Origin: an uncultured bacterium
Lineage (GTDB): Bacteria > Vulcanimicrobiota > JAJTBE01 > CAZSLZ01
Assembly: GCA_964607865.1 (NCBI GenBank)
Contig: CAZSLZ010000008.1
Coordinates: 1 to 41,422 of the forward strand
DNA: 41,422 nucleotides
Reading direction: 5' to 3'
Part shown: positions 4,999 to 41,340 of the stretch, piece by piece
Position numbering within the stretch: the stretch's first letter is position 1
Layout: each line of letters starts with the position of its first letter
The notes under the pieces: generated by a model
What the model saw: the letters and a program-made list of their open reading frames with translations, nothing else
What the model was told of the DNA's origin: nothing
The model's database searches: none
Translations under genes and position numbers: made by a program

Positions 4999-5279
4999 CC
5001 AACTCACTCCTTGCAAAATAGAATTCAATATTTACAACAGCATGAAAAAATAAAAGTTTCTTTTATGATTTTACTGAATTTTCAGAACCCGGGATGTTAG
5101 TTGGTTTGTTGAGATTATTTGATGATGATGTACAGAGATGCAATTTTAGAAAAACTTTTTCCAGCTTTTAAAGAACATAAAAGTAAGCCAGTTAAAGAAG
5201 CAAAAGACAGCATTGTTGCCTTAATTTAGAAGGATATAAGCTGAAGAAAAAAATATATATTAATATGAGGGAGTATGAT

Positions 5280-6839
5280 ATGTCCCAATTGCACAGGGCC
5301 GTTCTGGATGAAGATATTGAAGAGCTGGTTCACATTCTGGATAAGAATTCCAATGTTAACCTCTTTAATGTTAATAAATTAACTCCCCTTCACCTGGCTG
5401 TTTACCGGGATAATTTAGAGGCCACCAGAATTCTGCTGGCAAAAAACGCAAATTGCAATCTTTCTGATATAGATGGATTTACCCCCCTGGCAAGGGCTGT
5501 GGAGAAAGGTCATTCGGAAACAATCAAGATGGTTTACCAGAACCGTGATGATCTGAATTTCGGAGATAAAAACAACAGAACTTTATTACATATAGCGGTG
5601 GAAAAAAACCATGCTGAAATCGCCAGGCTGCTCTCCGAGCTGATGGGAGAATTAGATATTCCCGATGGCCAGGGAATAACCCCTCTGCAGAGGGCAATAA
5701 TGAACAGCCAGGCAGAACCAGGATGGTTCCTGGTCCCCGGATGCCAATTATCTTCAGCCGACACCTGGGGCAAGATACAGGGGGGCAAGGTGCCTGTTAT
5801 CGCCTATATAGTATGGGCTCTGGCGGAATCCGGTTATACCGGGCCTTCCCTCAACAAGGGAATTGGCTATATCAAAAAAAATATCGGCCAGTTTGAAGAC
5901 CCCTACGTTCTGGCTCTGGTTACCAACGCTCTGGCAACCATGGAACCTGAAAACCAGTTAACAAGAGAATTATTGGAAAAACTGAAGTCCAAGGCTGAAT
6001 TTACCAAAGACTCGGCATACTGGACACCTGGAGTGGCGACTGCAACTTATAGCACGGGCAGCAGCGCCAATATGGAAACCACTGCCATGGCAGCTTTGGC
6101 ATTCATGAAAGTAGAGGGTTATGAAGAGCTGGCAAACAAAGCTGTGAGTTATTTAGTTCAGAGCAAGGATTCCTTTGGGACCTGGTATTCAACCAAGAGT
6201 ACGGTTCTGGCGATGAAAGCTCTGTTAACTGCCCAGGAAAAAGCTGGTAAAAGTGTGGATGCCAGGGTAGAAATCATGGTTAACGGCGAAGCCAGCGAAA
6301 CATTCCAGATTGATTCAGAAAATTATGAACTTTTCCGCCAGGCTGATTTCAGCCATATAACCAGGCAGGGTTCCAATACTGTTGAAGGCAAGGGCGCCTG
6401 TTTCTACCAGGTAACCGCCCGGCATTATATACCCTGGAAACTGGCGAAACAGAATAAACATCTGGCAATTGAGGTAAAATACGACAGGACCCAGTTAAAA
6501 ACTGATGATCTCCTGACTTCTACTGTGACTGTAAAAAACAATACAAAAGCAGCCATGAAAATGGTAATGGTGGACCTGGGAATTCCTCCGGGATTTACCG
6601 TAATGACCCCTGACCAGGGTGAGTATGTGGGCGGAAAATTCCAGAAATACAATATGACTTCAAGGCAAATGATAATTTATGTTGATACCCTGAAAGCCGG
6701 CGAGGATTTAAAATTCAAGTACCGGCTGAAAGCCAGGTACCCCTTGCGGGCTAAGACTCCGGAAAGCAAAGCTTACCAGTATTACAACCCTGGCGTGGAA
6801 GACAAAGCCCAGCCAGTGACCCTGGATGTGAAGGAATAA
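5280..6839 (+). CDS. Fusion of N-terminal ankyrin repeats to an alpha-2-macroglobulin-like C-terminal half (TED + MG8 + receptor-binding-like domains); no signal peptide and no CxEQ thioester
   Basis: The N-terminus carries three or four ANK repeats (TPLHLAVYRDNLEATRILLAKNA, TPLARAVEKGHSETI, TLLHIAVEKNHAEIARLL). The central region matches the A2M/C3d thioester-domain toroid: YIVWALAESG, METTAMAALAFMKV and FGTWYSTKSTVLAMKALLTAQEKA (compare C3 [21 protein letters not shown]). The C-terminal end is GKGACFYQVTARHYIP...GFTVMTPDQGEYVGGKFQKYNMTSRQMIIYV, like A2M MG8/RBD. The thioester position reads VPGCQLSS, not GCGEQ. The start is ATG 5280, with a GAGGGAG 5 nt upstream. Confidence 0.65.
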   Translation: MSQLHRAVLDEDIEELVHILDKNSNVNLFNVNKLTPLHLAVYRDNLEATRILLAKNANCNLSDIDGFTPLARAVEKGHSETIKMVYQNRDDLNFGDKNNRTLLHIAVEKNHAEIARLLSELMGELDIPDGQGITPLQRAIMNSQAEPGWFLVPGCQLSSADTWGKIQGGKVPVIAYIVWALAESGYTGPSLNKGIGYIKKNIGQFEDPYVLALVTNALATMEPENQLTRELLEKLKSKAEFTKDSAYWTPGVATATYSTGSSANMETTAMAALAFMKVEGYEELANKAVSYLVQSKDSFGTWYSTKSTVLAMKALLTAQEKAGKSVDARVEIMVNGEASETFQIDSENYELFRQADFSHITRQGSNTVEGKGACFYQVTARHYIPWKLAKQNKHLAIEVKYDRTQLKTDDLLTSTVTVKNNTKAAMKMVMVDLGIPPGFTVMTPDQGEYVGGKFQKYNMTSRQMIIYVDTLKAGEDLKFKYRLKARYPLRAKTPESKAYQYYNPGVEDKAQPVTLDVKE

Positions 6840-6862: not shown

Positions 6863-6897
6863 AGAACTGATTAGCTCCAATCAGTTCTCTTTTTTAT
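6863..6897 (+). terminator. Rho-independent terminator gaactgatt-agctcc-aatcagttc followed by TCTTTTTTAT
   Basis: A 9-bp perfect stem with a T-run lies 24 nt after the stop of the Ank-A2M gene. Confidence 0.7.
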
Positions 6898-6902
6898 ATA
6901 AC

Positions 6903-7030
6903 TTTGGTAAATGGGTTGGAAACCAACCCGATCCAAATTAAGATTGCCGCGGTTTCTGCCGTTTGCCTTCGTCATCACGAGCATCCGTAAGGATGCGTGG
7001 TGATCTCTGTATCGCTCAGGTAAATGGTTT
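6903..7030 (-). repeat. Mosaic structured intergenic repeat, copy 2 (minus-strand orientation, with the modules rearranged to B then A)
   Basis: The reverse complement reads ccatttacctgagcgatacagagatcaccacgcatccttacggatgctcgtgatgacgaaggcaaacggcagaaaccgcggcaatcttaatttggatcgggttggtttccaacccatttacc. It matches modules A and B of copy 1, but with module A placed 3' of B. A ccatttacc string occurs at both ends. Confidence 0.6.
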
Positions 7031-7116
7031 TTAACCAATCTGCTGCAAACTAAAACTGTTATAATCAGTTGTTAAAAAATGGTTTAAAACTGTTTACAAC
7101 GAATTTATAGACTAAG

Positions 7117-8391
7117 ATGAAGATAACAGAAAAAATAGGGGAACCTTTTAAAAAGCTTTTTGCAATGCCCTGGCTGGCAAAAATGGTTTTGTTCTTATCT
7201 ATTATGGGGCCGGGGCTTATCACGGCCAATGTAGATAACGATGCCAACGGCATCGCCACCTATTCGGTGGCGGGGGCAAGTTTTGGCTATTCTATGATAT
7301 GGGTTCTATTCGTGGTGGTTTTTTTTCAGGGCCTGGTTCAGGAAATGACTGCCCGGCTGGGATGCATTACCGGCAAGGGCTTGTCGGACCTGATCAGAGA
7401 AAACTTCGGGGTAAAGGTTACTGTTTACCTCATGTTTATCCTTTTTCTGGCAAATTTTGCCAACGTTATAGGCAATTTTGCAGGTATCGCCGCCGGTGCT
7501 GAATTGTTTAATATTCCCCGTTTTGTGTCAATTCCACTGGGGGCTTTGTTTGTATGGTTCCTTGTGGTAAAAGGATCCTATGAACGAACTGAAAAAATTT
7601 TTCTGTGGGCATGCCTTATCTACCTCACCTACATCGCATCGGGCCTTATGGCGAAACCCGACTGGGGAAAAATCGCAGATTCCACTATTCATCCCCAGGT
7701 AAGTTTTGACAGAAACTACATCTATATGGTAATCGCCATAGTGGGAAGCACCATCGCCCCCTGGATGCAATTTTTTCAGCAGTCCGCCATTAGAGATAAA
7801 CAGGTGGATGAAAAGAATTATGTTTATGTAAGATGGGATACATATATCGGTACCATCGCCATGGCTATAGTCAGTTTTTTTATTATAGTAGCCTGCGCCG
7901 CCACCCTCCACGTTCAGGGAATCAAGATTGAAAGCGCCGAACAGGCCGCTCTGGCGCTTGCCCCACTGGCAGGCAAATATGCCAGTATCCTCTTCGGGGT
8001 GGGGCTTCTTAACGCAGCAATTTTTTCCACAGCTATCATTCCCATTTCCACCTCCTACGCCATCTGCGAATCATTTGGCTGGGAATCAGGAATGGGAAAA
8101 AGCTTCAAGGAAGCTCCGGTTTTTCTGGGTATCTATACCTTCATGATTGTGGCAGGCTCTTTTATTCTTATGATACCGGGAATACCCCTTATTCCCATTA
8201 TGGTTCTTTCCCAGGCGTTAAATGGAATTCTGCTGCCATTCATTCTTATTATTATTATGAAACTGATTAACGATAAAAGGCTGATGGGCAAATGGACCAA
8301 CTCGCTGGTTTTTAATATTCTTGCCTGGATCACCACTATCGTTATTTCTATTCTTTCCGTCATCCTCATTGTTATGACTTTTCAGGCATAA
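7117..8391 (+). CDS. Nramp-family divalent cation transporter, probably of the NRMT (Mg2+-selective) type
   Basis: There are eleven or twelve TMs. The TM1 motif GPGLITANVDNDANGIATYSVAGASFGY aligns with E. coli MntH [28 protein letters not shown], except that DPGN is replaced by DANG. The TM6 sequence AIVGSTIAPW replaces the GATVMPH motif, so the conserved Met is an Ala. Confidence 0.75.
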   Translation: MKITEKIGEPFKKLFAMPWLAKMVLFLSIMGPGLITANVDNDANGIATYSVAGASFGYSMIWVLFVVVFFQGLVQEMTARLGCITGKGLSDLIRENFGVKVTVYLMFILFLANFANVIGNFAGIAAGAELFNIPRFVSIPLGALFVWFLVVKGSYERTEKIFLWACLIYLTYIASGLMAKPDWGKIADSTIHPQVSFDRNYIYMVIAIVGSTIAPWMQFFQQSAIRDKQVDEKNYVYVRWDTYIGTIAMAIVSFFIIVACAATLHVQGIKIESAEQAALALAPLAGKYASILFGVGLLNAAIFSTAIIPISTSYAICESFGWESGMGKSFKEAPVFLGIYTFMIVAGSFILMIPGIPLIPIMVLSQALNGILLPFILIIIMKLINDKRLMGKWTNSLVFNILAWITTIVISILSVILIVMTFQA

Positions 8392-9553: not shown

Positions 9554-9997
9554 ATGGGTTTGTCATGTCCGATTGCATACGAAAAAATTGATGAAAATGT
9601 GGCAAGAATGAATGGAGTTCTGGCCTTCATAGTTGCCATTTTATTCATTTTTACAGGTTTGAAATGGCTGGCTTTTTTTCTGTTGGCGGATTTTGGGCTG
9701 AGAGCTTTCAAACAGGGCAAATTAAGCCCGTTGTGCTTTTTCAGTAAAACCATAATGAAACTGGCAAATAAGGAACCTTCACCAACAAATGCCGGGCCCA
9801 AATATTTTGCAGCCAGAATCGGCTTTGCTTTTTCCCTCATCATTTCAATCCTGGTGGTATTAAATTATCTGGGATACCAAAACTTCTTGTTCCCTGCATT
9901 AATTCTGGCTGGAATGCTGAGTTTCTTCGCCTTTCTTGAAGGTTTTTTCGGCTTTTGTGTTGCCTGTAAAATTTATCCTCTGGTTGTAAAACAATAA
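9554..9997 (+). CDS. Small integral membrane protein (DUF4395-like)
   Basis: The 147-aa protein starts MGLSCPIAYEKIDENVARMNGVLAFIVAILF and has four predicted TM helices. A strong AAGGGGGA RBS lies upstream. Confidence 0.5.
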   Translation: MGLSCPIAYEKIDENVARMNGVLAFIVAILFIFTGLKWLAFFLLADFGLRAFKQGKLSPLCFFSKTIMKLANKEPSPTNAGPKYFAARIGFAFSLIISILVVLNYLGYQNFLFPALILAGMLSFFAFLEGFFGFCVACKIYPLVVKQ

Positions 9998-11029: not shown

Positions 11030-11689
11030 TTACTGGGTCTTGCCGAAAGACACATTCCATTTTCCACTGGCCTTGATTTGAACTATATAGGTTCCTTCAG
11101 CAGGAATATTAACAGTTGTGCTGTCGGTAAAATGGCCCACCGAATTTGCCAGCTCAGCCACTCTTCTTCCCCTGCTGTCAATCAGATAAGCAGAGAAGTT
11201 TCTTCCACCCTTATGGCCCACAGTAAAAAGGTATTTTCCCTCTTCCAGTTTGAAGGTGGGGGTAGCATCCATAGTGTTGGTTTCGCCGGAAAATTCATTT
11301 TCACCCTCTTTGGCGGCTATGGTAGAAAAAACACTGGCCACCCATTCGCCGTCAGCTTCGGTAGCTTCCATATATCTTTTTACTTTGATATTCTCTTCTT
11401 CGGCATCAGCGGGTTTATTTACGGCAACCACTTTTCTGCCTTTGAAGGGGCCCACGCCAGATGCCAAAACATCAGTAACAACGCCAGCTTCATTTTTGAC
11501 AACGAAATTAAACTTGCTGAAACCCTTGTTGTTGATTTCAAAAAGATAAAGCCCCGGGGGCAAACGAAACACCTTGGTTCTGGATTTTCCTGACATTTTG
11601 AAGGGGTTGGCAAAAACTGAAACGGTTAAAACCGCTATAAGCAGCCCTATGATAATCAAGGTTTTAAAATGAGTTGTTTTTCTCATCAC
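11030..11689 (-). CDS. Secreted hypothetical protein with two internal repeats
   Basis: The signal peptide is MMRKTTHFKTLIIIGLLIAVLTVSVFA. Two related segments are present (LPPGLYLFEINNKGFSKFNFVV... and LEEGKYLFTVGHKGGRNFSAYLI...). Confidence 0.5.
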   Translation of the reverse strand: MMRKTTHFKTLIIIGLLIAVLTVSVFANPFKMSGKSRTKVFRLPPGLYLFEINNKGFSKFNFVVKNEAGVVTDVLASGVGPFKGRKVVAVNKPADAEEENIKVKRYMEATEADGEWVASVFSTIAAKEGENEFSGETNTMDATPTFKLEEGKYLFTVGHKGGRNFSAYLIDSRGRRVAELANSVGHFTDSTTVNIPAEGTYIVQIKASGKWNVSFGKTQ

Positions 11690-14628: not shown

Positions 14629-14768
14629 CATCATTCCCCATTTCTTTTCCATGTAACAGTTTAAATCTCTAATCGGTTTTTCCTACTGAATTATGTTACT
14701 CAAAAAATAAAGGCAATTTTCAGGAAAAAAAACGAAAAAGATAAATATAATTTTTGGGGAGGATGTTT

Positions 14769-15005
14769 ATGAAAAAGTCAGTGGGTGTTTATTTTCTTTC
14801 ATTAATAACTATTCTTATATTATGCCAGGGTTTTCTGCCGGTTTTAGCAAGCCCCAGGAAACCCGATTATTGCTTTGCTCAAAAATATTCAGCAGGGGAA
14901 GTTTACGAAAACCCCGACAAGGCAAAAGAATTTCTAACAGTAGTTTCGCATTATGAAAAAAAATATTTTTTTCATAATGCGAAACTACTGCCCGATCTAA
15001 ACTGA
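14769..15005 (+). CDS. Possible small secreted protein whose C-terminus is encoded by a long palindrome
   Basis: A GGGGAGG RBS precedes ATG 14769. The signal peptide is MKKSVGVYFLSLITILILCQGFLPVLASP. The last roughly 18 codons are supplied by the 14938-14992 inverted repeat, so coding status is uncertain. Confidence 0.3.
   Translation: MKKSVGVYFLSLITILILCQGFLPVLASPRKPDYCFAQKYSAGEVYENPDKAKEFLTVVSHYEKKYFFHNAKLLPDLN
14938..14992. repeat. Near-perfect 26-bp inverted repeat (cagtagtttcgcattatgaaaaaaaa / ttttttttcataatgcgaaactactg)
   Basis: Visible directly in the sequence. It produces mirror-image ORFs on both strands (VVSHYEKKYFFHNAKLL on the plus strand and AVVSHYEKNIFFHNAKLL on the minus strand). 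It lies between the convergent small ORF and gcvPB. Confidence 0.7.
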
Positions 15006-15062
15006 GATTGCCACGCCTCTTTGAGGCTCTCAATGGCAAATTTGAGATTCTTTTAGAAAATC

Positions 15063-15094
15063 TAAAAGGAGCCATCCTTTTGGGACAGCTCCAT
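15063..15094. terminator. Conserved GGGACAGC hairpin (aaaaggagccatccttttgggacagctccatt), a probable bidirectional terminator
   Basis: It lies 22 nt downstream of the gcvPB stop on the minus strand. The same core sequence occurs at 281, 23141, 28340 and 34637. Confidence 0.5.
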
Positions 15095-18373: not shown

Positions 18374-18548
18374 CAAGACGCCTCCTTATTATGGTTTGAG
18401 AAAAACTTCACTAACTGCAATAAAATACCTGTTTTTTTGCCAAATTTTTAATGGACCTTTCCGTTCACAAAGCCTGTGGTTTTTTGCTGAATTGTTTATT
18501 TGAAATTTTATTGTTTTTGTTATATTATATTCTGGGAGAGTTGTTATA

Positions 18549-19268: not shown

Positions 19269-20402
19269 ATGATTGTAAATAAACTTGAGTTAAATAATTT
19301 TAGAAATTTGAAACCTGCCAGCCTGGAGTTTTCACCGGGCTTTAACCTTATCATAGGAAAAAACGCCCAAGGCAAATCGAGTTTCCTGGAAGCTCTCTAT
19401 TCTTTGAGCCTGGGCAGATCTTACAGGACCAATAAAGAGGAGAATATAATAAATTTTGACAGCAGTTTTGCCAGGGTGGCGGGCAGTTTTGCTGTGGGTG
19501 GTCTGGCTTTTTCCCTGGAGATCCAATGGGAAAAACCTGAATCGACCAGGCTGAATAAGACAATTAAATTGAATTCCAACCCGGTTACCCGGCTTTCCGA
19601 CTTCATAGCCCGGTCGCCTATGGTACTGTTTCTGGCTGAAGATCTTGAAATAATAAGGGGAGCGCCTGAAAACCGCCGAAAACTGCTGGACCTAATCTGC
19701 AGCAGGCTGAAACCTGTATATGCCTCTACATTAAGGGAATACAATAAAATTCTGGATCTTAGAAACCGCTGGTTGAAATTGCCCGAAAGAAACAGGGACA
19801 AATATATGGGTGAAATTTACTCGGAAAAACTGATTTCTCTGGGTGCCGAGATTCTGTGTCATCGTTTTCAGGCTCTGGAATCGCTGAGAAAAATTATGAC
19901 TCAAATTTTTATTGATTTATTCAAACAGGATATGCCCAAACTGGGATATCGTTCATCGGTAAAGGAGTTTAAAAACCGGGAGCCCGAATCACTGAAGGAA
20001 GCTTTCAGCGATGCACTGCAAAGGCTGGAGCAAAGCGAAAATAAAGTGGGTTATACCTTGGCAGGCCCTCATCGCGATGATATAGTATTTAAGAAAGACG
20101 GCAAAAGAATCAGAAATTTCGGTTCCCTGGGAGAGATTCGCGGGGTGTCGGTGGTTCTGAAACTGGCGGAAGCTGAGATTATCAGCCAGCAAATGGATAT
20201 CGAACCGGTAATTTTGATTGATGACAGCCTCAGGGAACTGGATCCTTCCAGGGTAGATCTTTTTATTAATTTTATTAAGGCCAAAAAACAAATTTTTTTT
20301 GCAGCCACCGAAATTCCAGAATTCTTCAAGAATCATGGTTCCAGAACCAGGCTTTTTAACGTAAGCGAGGGGGTTATTTCAAATGCAACCCATGTCTATT
20401 AA
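19269..20402 (+). CDS. recF: DNA replication and repair protein RecF
   Basis: The N-terminus MIVNKLELNNFRNLKPASLEFSPGFNLIIGKNAQGKSSFLEALYSL has the RecF start and Walker A. The C-terminal ABC signature and D-loop region is GPHRDDIVF...ILIDD. Confidence 0.85.
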   Translation: MIVNKLELNNFRNLKPASLEFSPGFNLIIGKNAQGKSSFLEALYSLSLGRSYRTNKEENIINFDSSFARVAGSFAVGGLAFSLEIQWEKPESTRLNKTIKLNSNPVTRLSDFIARSPMVLFLAEDLEIIRGAPENRRKLLDLICSRLKPVYASTLREYNKILDLRNRWLKLPERNRDKYMGEIYSEKLISLGAEILCHRFQALESLRKIMTQIFIDLFKQDMPKLGYRSSVKEFKNREPESLKEAFSDALQRLEQSENKVGYTLAGPHRDDIVFKKDGKRIRNFGSLGEIRGVSVVLKLAEAEIISQQMDIEPVILIDDSLRELDPSRVDLFINFIKAKKQIFFAATEIPEFFKNHGSRTRLFNVSEGVISNATHVY

Positions 20403-22931: not shown

Positions 22932-23140
22932 AAGCATTATCTAAAAGTTCAAAATAGTAACAATCAATATTTATTTGCGTTCTTTTTAGGCTGTCACACC
23001 CTTCCAGGGCTCGCCAGGACGAACTTTCAATCCGTGAGAAGAATAGAATGGCTGAAGAAAAAACTATGCTGTGAACAGCCTGTTCCTGTTTTCCAAACCG
23101 GGCTGCCAACCATGAATGTTGGATTTTTATAAAACAATTT

Positions 23141-23176
23141 AAAGAGGCCATCCTTGTGGGACAGCCCCTTAATTTT
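23141..23176. terminator. Conserved GGGACAGC hairpin (aaagaggccatccttgtgggacagccccttaatttt)
   Basis: It lies 10 nt downstream of the htrA stop on the minus strand and belongs to the same family as 281, 15063, 28340 and 34637. Confidence 0.5.
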
Positions 23177-27517: not shown

Positions 27518-28060
27518 GTGCCAGTTATGAAAAGAATATTCCAATTTATACCAGTAATTATATTTCTTTTATTTACAGGTTGCCGGGGAAAAGTGGTTGC
27601 GGACATGACTTTCTGGGTAACCGGCGCCGGGAATGCCATAATAACAATGGAAAATTTCAGGGGCGCCAAAGACCGGATAGAAAGCCAACTCACCAGCGAT
27701 GGCTTCAGGGTGAAAGAAGTTTACTATGATGAAAACAACACCATAGTTAAACTCGAATGGAATAATTTCAATAAGGTTCGACAATTCCAGAAAATGACAC
27801 TCAATTCTGATTTTTCGCTGACCCTTGATTGCGGTAATGTTGATGAACTTAGTAGTTTTGACGGGGAAGTCTTTGTTACAGTCCCCGGTAAAATTATCAG
27901 TGAAGAAGGAATAAAACTGGAGCCCAACAGAGTAAAATTCAACTCGGGACAAGTAACCGTAACTTATTGGCCCACTGTTTTCTATTATATTACCCTGGCT
28001 TTTATTCTTGGCCTGGGCGGTTTCGTTTACTGGTTTTTCAAAAAAAGAAACCGGGGTTAA
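27518..28060 (+). CDS. Hypothetical lipoprotein with a C-terminal TM anchor
   Basis: The lipobox is LLFTGCRG. The C-terminal hydrophobic helix is PTVFYYITLAFILGLGGFVYWFF, followed by KKRNRG. Confidence 0.5.
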   Translation: MPVMKRIFQFIPVIIFLLFTGCRGKVVADMTFWVTGAGNAIITMENFRGAKDRIESQLTSDGFRVKEVYYDENNTIVKLEWNNFNKVRQFQKMTLNSDFSLTLDCGNVDELSSFDGEVFVTVPGKIISEEGIKLEPNRVKFNSGQVTVTYWPTVFYYITLAFILGLGGFVYWFFKKRNRG

Positions 28061-28094
28061 GTTGTTACAAAATATTAATCTTCTTAATCTCAAC

Positions 28095-28325
28095 CTGCAG
28101 GGGTTTTCCATACCCACTTACATGGGTGGTACAGATCGCCACGTCGCTAGTCGCGATGACAGTTTTTGAGAGTTGGCTCCCAACCCAGATACCTTGCGTT
28201 CGTGAGCGCCTGGATCTTTTTCATTTTTCATCCAACTGTATTGCGAACAATATGTTCACCAATTCCAAATGGGGAGAGAGCGCCACGCATGCTGGGGATG
28301 CCCGTGATGACGAAATTAGAATTTT
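28095..28325 (+). repeat. Mosaic structured intergenic repeat, copy 3 (a degenerate B' module, a C module and a B module)
   Basis: The region 28266-28312, ggggagagagcgccacgcatgctggggatgcccgtgatgacgaa, is a B-module copy. The region 28235-28270, attgcgaacaatatgttcaccaattccaaatgg, matches 41207-41240. The region 28128-28160, tacagatcgccacgtcgctagtcgcgatgacag, is a degenerate second B-like unit. Confidence 0.6.
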
Positions 28326-28339
28326 TCAACTTGTAAACA

Positions 28340-28369
28340 AAGGGGCTGCCCTTTTGGGACAGCTCCTGT
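28340..28369. terminator. Conserved GGGACAGC hairpin (aaaggggctgcccttttgggacagctcctg)
   Basis: The stem gctgccc/gggacagc lies between the repeat copy and the minus-strand ackA stop at 28424. Confidence 0.5.
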
Positions 28370-28423
28370 AAAATCCTGTTCTGTTTTAATTTGATCTTAT
28401 TTTTGGGGAAGTCAGTATTCAGG

Positions 28424-41164: not shown

Positions 41165-41340
41165 CTCAGAAGTCCGTCACATTTCCATAGTCCGTTATGT
41201 TGTCATTGCCAACAATATGTTCCCCCATTCCAAATGAGGAGAGATCGCCACGCATCCTGTGGATGCTCGTGATGACGAATTCTGTGTAGATTTCGTTTTT
41301 TCTTTCAACAATCGTTGAAGTTTTCTGGAAATCAGTATAT
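41165..41340 (+). repeat. Mosaic structured intergenic repeat, copy 4 (modules C, B and D)
   Basis: The region 41235-41277, ggagagatcgccacgcatcctgtggatgctcgtgatgacgaa, is module B. The region 41283-41337 matches the 3' tail of copy 1 (461-515). The region 41207-41240 matches the C module of copy 3. Confidence 0.65.

Follow-up and report, generated by a model that had tools for sequence, protein, structure and literature searches.

A candidate mosaic family of intergenic hairpin repeats on a 41-kb contig from an uncultured bacterium

In Neisseria, NIME arrays are made of repeat units 50-150 bp long that have 20-bp inverted repeats, known as dRS3, at their boundaries, and in Streptococcus pneumoniae the BOX elements are built as boxA-boxB(n)-boxC, with a fixed module order and terminal modules that pair together. 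The REP and BIME sequences of enterobacteria and pseudomonads are short imperfect intergenic palindromes, often found just past gene 3' ends, which are clustered, combined with a few other short motifs into mosaic arrays and lineage-specific in sequence (PMC2817692, PMC3333891, PMC3116915). For MITEs, terminal inverted repeats and target-site duplications are defining (PMC3184786). The window considered here, a stretch of 41,422 bp that constitutes one whole contig of a metagenome-assembled genome (MAG), holds intergenic repeats at five loci (c1 to c5, the first two also being called copies 1 and 2) that resemble REP/BIME, the NIMEs and BOX in kind, belong to none of them and form a sequence family that is itself new.

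Like REP/BIME, the repeats of the window include short imperfect palindromes (the modules B and h1), are confined to spacers and are mosaic and lineage-specific. However, the conserved GTAG/GTGG head of REP is absent; the B hairpin is preceded by ACAGAG in the sense orientation or TTCGTC in the antisense orientation, and in the B alignments it is solely within the 3' arm that the antisense strand has GTRG. The alternating orientation of BIMEs is also absent, as both B-type units of c3 lie on the same strand as direct copies, and BIME linker motifs are shorter than the non-palindromic modules of the window (A-core, D and C). REP sequences occur tens to hundreds of times per genome and typically flank a RAYT (Y1 transposase) gene; the 41 kb of the window have five repeat loci, and no RAYT gene was seen in them. 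As in the NIMEs, modules are shuffled between copies of one palindromic boundary motif, here GGGTTGG-N3-CCAACCC followed by the 9-mer CCATTTACC in c1 to c3, but the boundary sequence is unrelated, only some junctions carry it (not D-B or B-C), and matches resembling dRS3 (ATTCCC-N8-GGGAAT) occur in the window at chance frequency, none of them at repeat loci. To our knowledge, no recombinase or phage integration is associated with the boundary motif of the window's family. The BOX elements likewise are small modular intergenic repeats with variable module number and combination and stable hairpins, but their order is fixed, whereas order and partners vary here, and the sequences are unrelated. 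MITEs are comparable in being small, non-coding, multi-copy and intergenic, but the terminal inverted repeats and target-site duplication are missing from the window's repeats.

The module map was obtained from profile searches and an all-vs-all comparison of the window's spacers; all five loci lie on the single 41-kb contig, and module boundaries and definitions are drawn from two to five copies each. The modules of the family (T, h0, A-core, h1 with CCATTTACC, B, C and D) are short, most of them form hairpins, and they are combined differently from one intergenic site to the next. Besides the five loci there is one solo hairpin, the architecture differs at every locus, and the five loci make up about 18% of the window's spacer DNA (roughly 5.1 kb). 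On the plus strand, c1 (281-516) reads T-h0-A-core-h1 (degenerate)-9-mer-B-C, with the T hairpin at 281-311, a spacer, the h0 hairpin at 345-365, A at 356-407 (A-core 365-383, degenerate h1 385-400, 9-mer 399-407), B at 408-457 and C at 458-516, the last with a weak hairpin and T7 at 453-480 and the palindrome GAACAATTGTTGAA at 485-498; A and B abut without a gap, in the A-B order that a first-pass annotation of this DNA had reported for copy 1. On the minus strand, c2 (6906-7054) comprises A', the 9-mer, B, a linker, the 3' half of h0, A-core, h1 and again the 9-mer. The plus-strand locus c3 (28100-28366) reads h1-B'-h1-X-D-B, followed by a T hairpin: an h1-like motif plus 9-mer variant (28100-28121), a divergent B' (28123-28159), a second h1-like motif plus variant (28170-28193), the stretch X of about 45 nt, D (28240-28274), B (28275-28314) and, on the minus strand, the T hairpin that is the ackA terminator (28339-28366). 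At c4 (41205-41337, plus strand), D (41205-41239), B (41240-41279) and C (41280-41337) follow one another, and at c5 (14938-15092, minus strand) T (15065-15092), a spacer, an h0-like hairpin with an outer stem (15008-15039) and A-core (14994-15012) are followed by a palindrome in place of h1 and B (14938-14990). That palindrome, directly after A-core, is perfect, with 25-bp arms (CAGTAGTTTCGCATTATGAAAAAAA and TTTTTTTCATAATGCGAAACTACTG) and a 3-nt loop. The solo T hairpin (23119-23170, minus strand) carries a 22-nt extension, is homologous to 282-333 and lies downstream of an HtrA-like gene.

Different pairs of loci have different subsets of modules in common, at similar identity (88-93%). Thus, c1 and c2 have A and B in common (88-90%), c1 and c4 have B and C (88% over 99 nt), c3 and c4 have D and B (89% over 75 nt), and c1 and c5 are alike in T, spacer, h0 and A-core and then diverge. 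With five copies, B is the common core; its left neighbour is A or D and its right neighbour is C, the linker plus A, or other sequence, while A-core is followed by h1 or by the 25-bp palindrome. The suggestion of the first-pass annotation that modules recombine independently is borne out by these changing partners. In a profile search of the window, the boundary motif of h1 plus 9-mer occurs five times and is the usual left neighbour of B, in c1, c2 and, as variants that are each off CCATTTACC at 2/9 positions, in c3; the D-B-C and D-B copies are without it. It is normal for units of the family to be clustered, as the c3 spacer, with its two modules of B type and two of h1 type, shows.

Two observations concern the outlying modules. 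Both D and C hold an AACAAT..GTT palindrome, GAACAATATGTTC and CAACAATATGTTC in D (28245-28257 and 41210-41222) and GAACAATTGTTGAA and CAACAATCGTTGAA in C (485-498 and 41306-41319), so that D-B-C has similar palindromes on its two sides, separated by about 95 nt; they could be protein-binding sites, and patterns of this type are not enriched elsewhere in the window. The T hairpin has four near-identical copies (AAAGGGGCTGTCCC-AAAA-GGRYAGCCCCTTT), at 281-311 on the plus strand and at 15065-15092, 23141-23168 and 28339-28366 on the minus strand, each just past a stop codon and oriented as a terminator, of the ankyrin gene, gcvPB, the htrA-like gene and ackA, respectively; three of the four adjoin A/B-type modules. 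As a putative family of terminators of the same sequence, the T hairpins recall uptake-sequence pairs or mobile terminators.

Copy 2 is the locus from which the analysis started. Read on the minus strand, 7030..6903 is aaaCCATTTACC / tgagcgatacagagatcaccacgcatccttacggatgctcgtgatgacgaa / ggcaaacggc / agaaaccgcggcaatcttaatttggatcgggttggtttccaacCCATTTACC / aaa, in which B is tgagcgatacagagatcaccacgcatccttacggatgctcgtgatgacgaa (7018..6968, 51 nt), the linker is ggcaaacggc (6967..6958, 10 nt) and A is agaaaccgcggcaatcttaatttggatcgggttggtttccaacCCATTTACC (6957..6906, 52 nt). The B hairpin (6968..7018) is imperfect, of the form ATCAC..GCATCC-loop-GGATGC..GTGAT, and is recovered by nhmmer with E=5e-14; in folds, the module B hairpin is flanked by conserved single-stranded ends, ACAGAG and GACGAA. 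Module A consists of the 3' arm of h0 (6949-6957), A-core (GGCAATCTTAATTTGGATC, 6930-6948), a perfect h1 (GGGTTGG-TTT-CCAACCC, 6913-6929) and the right-hand CCATTTACC (6906-6914). Copies 1 and 2 match far better than by chance: blastn and nhmmer put the identity of A at 88% over 52 nt (E about 1e-16) and that of B with the 9-mer at 90% over 60 nt (E about 1e-14).

Much of what the first-pass annotation said of copy 2 can be read directly from the DNA: the minus strand from 7027 to 6906 runs CCATTTACC-B-GGCAAACGGC-A, where the end of A is again CCATTTACC, the 9-mer is exact at both ends (6906-6914 and 7019-7027), and the h1 hairpin is perfect in copy 2 and degenerate in copy 1, where 385-400 has two mismatches to the pattern GGTTGGNNNCCAACCC. 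Other points needed amendment. The loop of the hairpin, given as AAA, is so on the plus strand, the minus strand reading TTT. The 'gacgaa' that had been counted with the spacer closes B at its 3' end instead and is conserved in four of the five copies of B, all but the divergent B' (28123-28159), which ends differently, so that the real linker is the 10-nt ggcaaacggc. Finally, the 'swapped' order of modules is right insofar as B precedes A, but it is incomplete, as what appears to be a decayed tail of A (7028-7054) also lies 5' of B.

This last point bears on the nature of the 9-mer, whose two occurrences had been proposed to be a target-site duplication or a recombination junction. Exact CCATTTACC occurs three times in the 41,422 bp, at 399-407 on the plus strand and at 6906-6914 and 7019-7027 on the minus strand, all within copies 1 and 2, vs a chance expectation for both strands of about 0.3. 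Because it forms the internal A/B junction of copy 1, the 9-mer is element sequence and not a duplicated target; the left one of copy 2 (7019..7027) is the junction motif ahead of B, as in copy 1. Moreover, the 27 nt that directly abut the left 9-mer on its 5' side (7054..7028) match the A tail of copy 2 in register, with 18/28 identities in an anchored global alignment, a score that is reached by 2/5000 shuffles and by 0/5000 random windows of the contig; the match to the A tail of copy 1 is weaker (169/5000). This segment, A' (tttagtttgcagcagattggttaaaaa), would derive, with decay, from the 3' portion of a module A, and since the similarity to the A tail continues for 27 nt beyond the left 9-mer, copy 2 reads as A'(decayed)-B-linker-A. 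As judged from these alignments, copy 2 therefore looks like two neighbouring family units, each bearing the A-tail motif. The 9-mer 'bracket' belongs to the repeat itself and is not an insertion footprint. No flanking duplications were found at c1, c3, c4 or c5, and none recurs across the five B copies and three A-core copies available, an outcome that the first-pass annotation had itself named as counting against a duplication; a repeat search gave no pair of terminal inverted repeats at any copy, the ends of copy 2 being direct and not inverted. The target-site duplication thus fell, on the internal position of the 9-mer in c1, the 27-nt extension and the plain flanks of the other copies. 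The reading that copy 2 contains a recombination junction is supported: as A begins in the middle of h0, which is complete in c1 and c5, the B/linker/A joint is a breakpoint.

The favoured explanation, to which a probability of about 0.6 is assigned, takes the five loci as members of one family of mosaic intergenic hairpin repeats, restricted to this lineage; copy 2 is then a cluster of two units, not a unit transposon whose halves are swapped, and the direct repeat is the motif shared by the A tail and the B junction. Under this explanation, B would be preceded by an older A tail, now decayed, with the 9-mer at its end, and a second A, truncated at its 5' end and otherwise intact, would follow B and the 10-nt linker; the 9-mer occurs twice because two A tails are present. 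The arrangements may have arisen by recombination between dispersed copies at short common motifs or by template switching at hairpins, with local duplication and decay also contributing and no dedicated transposase acting on defined ends. The repeats may persist because hairpin DNA or RNA past terminators is tolerated or mildly useful, possibly in 3'-end protection or termination as described for REP/BIME.

What the hairpins do as RNA is at the heart of the first rival, which has the repeats as RNA structures under selection, either paralogous 3'-UTR elements or small RNAs in which the B hairpin is followed by the C hairpin and a U-run, the mosaic then reflecting the shuffling of functional RNA domains. 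As an account of the family it is unlikely, although as a reason for persistence it is compatible with the mosaic-repeat explanation. The B hairpin is kept in five of five copies, and a pair of its outer stem survives in the sense orientation, as A-U in two copies, G-U in two and G-C in one, where the antisense strand would have A-C in two copies. Similarly, the h0 stem keeps its pairing between c1 and c5 through two double (compensatory) changes, the outer stem going from U-G to C-G, and C ends with a weak hairpin and then T6-T7 in c1 and c4. Four of the five loci share the direction of the gene immediately before them. The stem changes and the end of C are hints of selection on the hairpins and of sense-strand transcription, but they are anecdotes at two to five sequences, too few for statistics. 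Against the idea, folds in the sense orientation are unremarkable (z-scores of about -1 to -2 for single sequences), copy 2 folds better on the opposite strand (z = -5.2) and is antisense to both of its neighbour genes, no promoter-like site was found, and Rfam 15 gave no match over the whole window; permissive Rfam searches of c1 to c4 returned sub-threshold chance matches only, c5 having been covered by the whole-window search. The C/D-box-like GUGAUGA of B was also considered as the mark of an RNA family and discarded, the only match being one to sR17 with E=0.81, as were k-turn and hammerhead readings of GUGAUGA...GAA, for which, by eye, the flanking nucleotides do not fit.

Less probable is site-specific recombination by an enzyme whose gene lies elsewhere and which would recognise the h1 palindrome with CCATTTACC and make its crossover there. 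A circle of B-linker-A-core would have entered the 9-mer of an earlier, solo A tail and left the core duplicated on both sides, much as cassettes or phages integrate or as at the dRS3 sites in NIMEs of Neisseria. The identity changes abruptly at the left 9-mer: it is about 64% in A', whereas the 9-mer itself matches at 9/9 and B at 90%, a pattern that fits recombination at the 9-mer at least as well as simple decay. Both 9-mers of copy 2 are exact, and a perfect palindrome with 7-bp arms stands directly beside the right-hand core. The linker between B and A holds an inverted, diverged copy of the 9-mer (plus-strand CCGTTTGCC, 6959-6967, 7/9 positions, from a search with CCRTTTRCC), which plain duplication and decay does not predict; B of copy 2 is thus itself bounded by CCATTTACC and a 7/9 inverted copy of it. 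In folds of the plus strand, CCGTTTGCC can pair with either flanking GGUAAAUGG, with two G-U pairs; the long hairpin so closed encloses B (-51.6 kcal/mol, z = -5.2) or A. In c3, too, modules are bounded by h1 and 9-mer-like motifs. It is the identity step, the B/linker/A breakpoint and the inverted 9-mer in the linker that keep a recombination core of h1 plus 9-mer alive. Copy 2 is, however, a single instance, the c3 variants of the 9-mer are imperfect, the D-B-C and D-B copies do without such a core, the window encodes no recombinase, and the resemblance of the linker and the beginning of A to h1 with the 9-mer in inverted form is marginal, about 2% of shuffles doing as well.

In its boldest form, which must be regarded as a long shot, this idea would make GGGTTGG-N3-CCAACCC plus CCATTTACC the crossover site of an unrecognised recombination system that moves non-coding cassettes of 50-90 nt, among them B and A-core, between intergenic sites. 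Were that so, copy 2 would be an integration product caught with its core duplicated on both sides, and a NIME/dRS3-like or attC-like system would exist in an uncultured lineage. Least credible of all is a transposon-type insertion, whereby a MITE-like B-A element duplicated a 9-bp target, CCATTTACC: the exact 9-nt direct repeat at both ends of 6906-7027 invites it, but the same 9-mer lies between A and B inside c1, the homology of the bracket goes 27 nt past the left 9-mer, the whole unit is without terminal inverted repeats, the other copies are without flanking duplications, and no transposase is encoded nearby.

For the same species there is another assembly (GCA_046542775.1, labelled Vulcanimicrobiota), in which c1, c2 and c5 are present with their repeats unchanged; over about 15 kb it differs from the window by only three SNPs. 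The possibility that copy 2 is a mis-assembly was dropped, because this assembly carries it unchanged, an independent contig spanning 3650-7575 with two mismatches, both outside the repeat. No empty site for copy 2 was found in this assembly, the only one from the same species. Two short-read Logan contigs of the species end at the B edge in c3 (28313) and 8 nt before D in c4 (41196). A k-mer repeat would predict ends about 30 nt inside the repeat, unlike those seen, and c1 was assembled through; these ends could be due to identical copies at other sites, to junctions that are polymorphic in the population or to a drop in coverage over the hairpins.

In six relatives whose Nramp is 71-82% identical, glnA or other genes lie upstream of Nramp, unlike in the window, and nhmmer profiles of A, B, h1, C and D (T and h0 not being profiled) found nothing significant in 94.5 kb of their DNA. 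The 12-mer GGTTTCCAACCC is common to the window and to one relative, L037, where it lies upstream of Nramp (9771-9782), but with E about 2 it is not significant. That relative (77% Nramp identity, 372-kb contig) has modular intergenic repeats of its own, at 5446-5678 and 19633-20351, which occur in either orientation and comprise 100 nt duplicated in tandem (20117-20316); in sequence they bear no relation to the window's family, and mosaic repeat families thus seem usual in the lineage. In the closest relative, L035, the contig opens (1-60) with long poly-G and poly-C runs that look like a sequencing or assembly artefact. Searches further afield yielded no additional copies. The 32 matches to the B core GGATGCYCGTGATGACGAA in a genome collection were set aside, as all were single chance matches in coding DNA of unrelated, mostly GC-rich genomes. 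A metagenome scan with a strict B pattern and a loose junction-plus-B pattern (the loose one matching three copies in the window) gave none, as did a scan of a viral collection with patterns for B, junction plus B, A-core and the T hairpin. A distant blastn comparison of copy 2 with plasmids and phages gave no match, a search for other copies through a spurious ORF (a 63-aa open frame over A-B-C of c1) gave no candidate, and an attempt to extend past the window's left end via the ankyrin C-terminus likewise found no match.

All the repeat loci are intergenic, each beside a terminator hairpin. Copy 2 lies upstream of the gene for a manganese transporter (Nramp), between the intrinsic terminator of an ankyrin/A2M-like gene (5265-6839) and the putative Nramp promoter. 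The terminator (6863..6888, plus strand) abuts copy 2 and is outside the repeat family. The putative promoter has an extended -10, TGTTATAAT, at 7057-7065, the Nramp start being at 7117, and A' overlaps its -35 region on the other strand. Further occurrences of TGTTATAAT, at 18542 and 27479, lie a short way ahead of genes, and in front of Nramp the extended -10 is followed by an inverted repeat, GTTGTTAAA...TTTACAAC (7068-7076 and 7093-7100), which could be the operator of a metal regulator.

For annotation, the five spacers should be marked as a repeat family and not as genes. By codon scores, ORFs that cross repeats are non-coding: those at 6871-7038 (minus strand) and 27967-28371 (plus strand) are repeat artefacts, and so, probably, is the 78-aa ORF at 14768-15004 (plus strand) over the c5 palindrome, which is called in another assembly and scores -0.31 bits/codon. 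The biological value of the repeats is modest, in that a modular intergenic repeat family of novel sequence, from an uncultured bacterium, is added to the REP/BIME/NIME class; the family is ordinary in kind and opens no long-standing question, and from a complete genome it could be learned whether the shuffling of modules is guided by short palindromes at their junctions.

The repeats are carried on an ordinary chromosomal contig, with an encapsulin operon, BON/Usp genes, the ankyrin/A2M-like gene, Nramp, glycine cleavage genes, recF, dciA, htrA, rsfS, nadD and ackA; among the ORFs scanned in the 41-kb window there was no transposase, integrase-family protein or Y1_Tnp/Y1 nuclease, and hence no intI of the kind that adjoins attC and its paired core sites in integrons. 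Within 622-1766 on the minus strand, the gene ahead of that for encapsulin (Linocin_M18) is small and gives a weak rubrerythrin-like match, the two likely forming a cargo-shell pair, and two BON-domain genes and a Usp gene are found nearby. Finally, 11030-11689 (minus strand) encodes a protein with a T9SS type A sorting domain (Por_Secre_tail); this domain is typical of the FCB group and is unexpected under the NCBI label 'Vulcanimicrobiota' on the sister MAG, and GC content is only about 41%.
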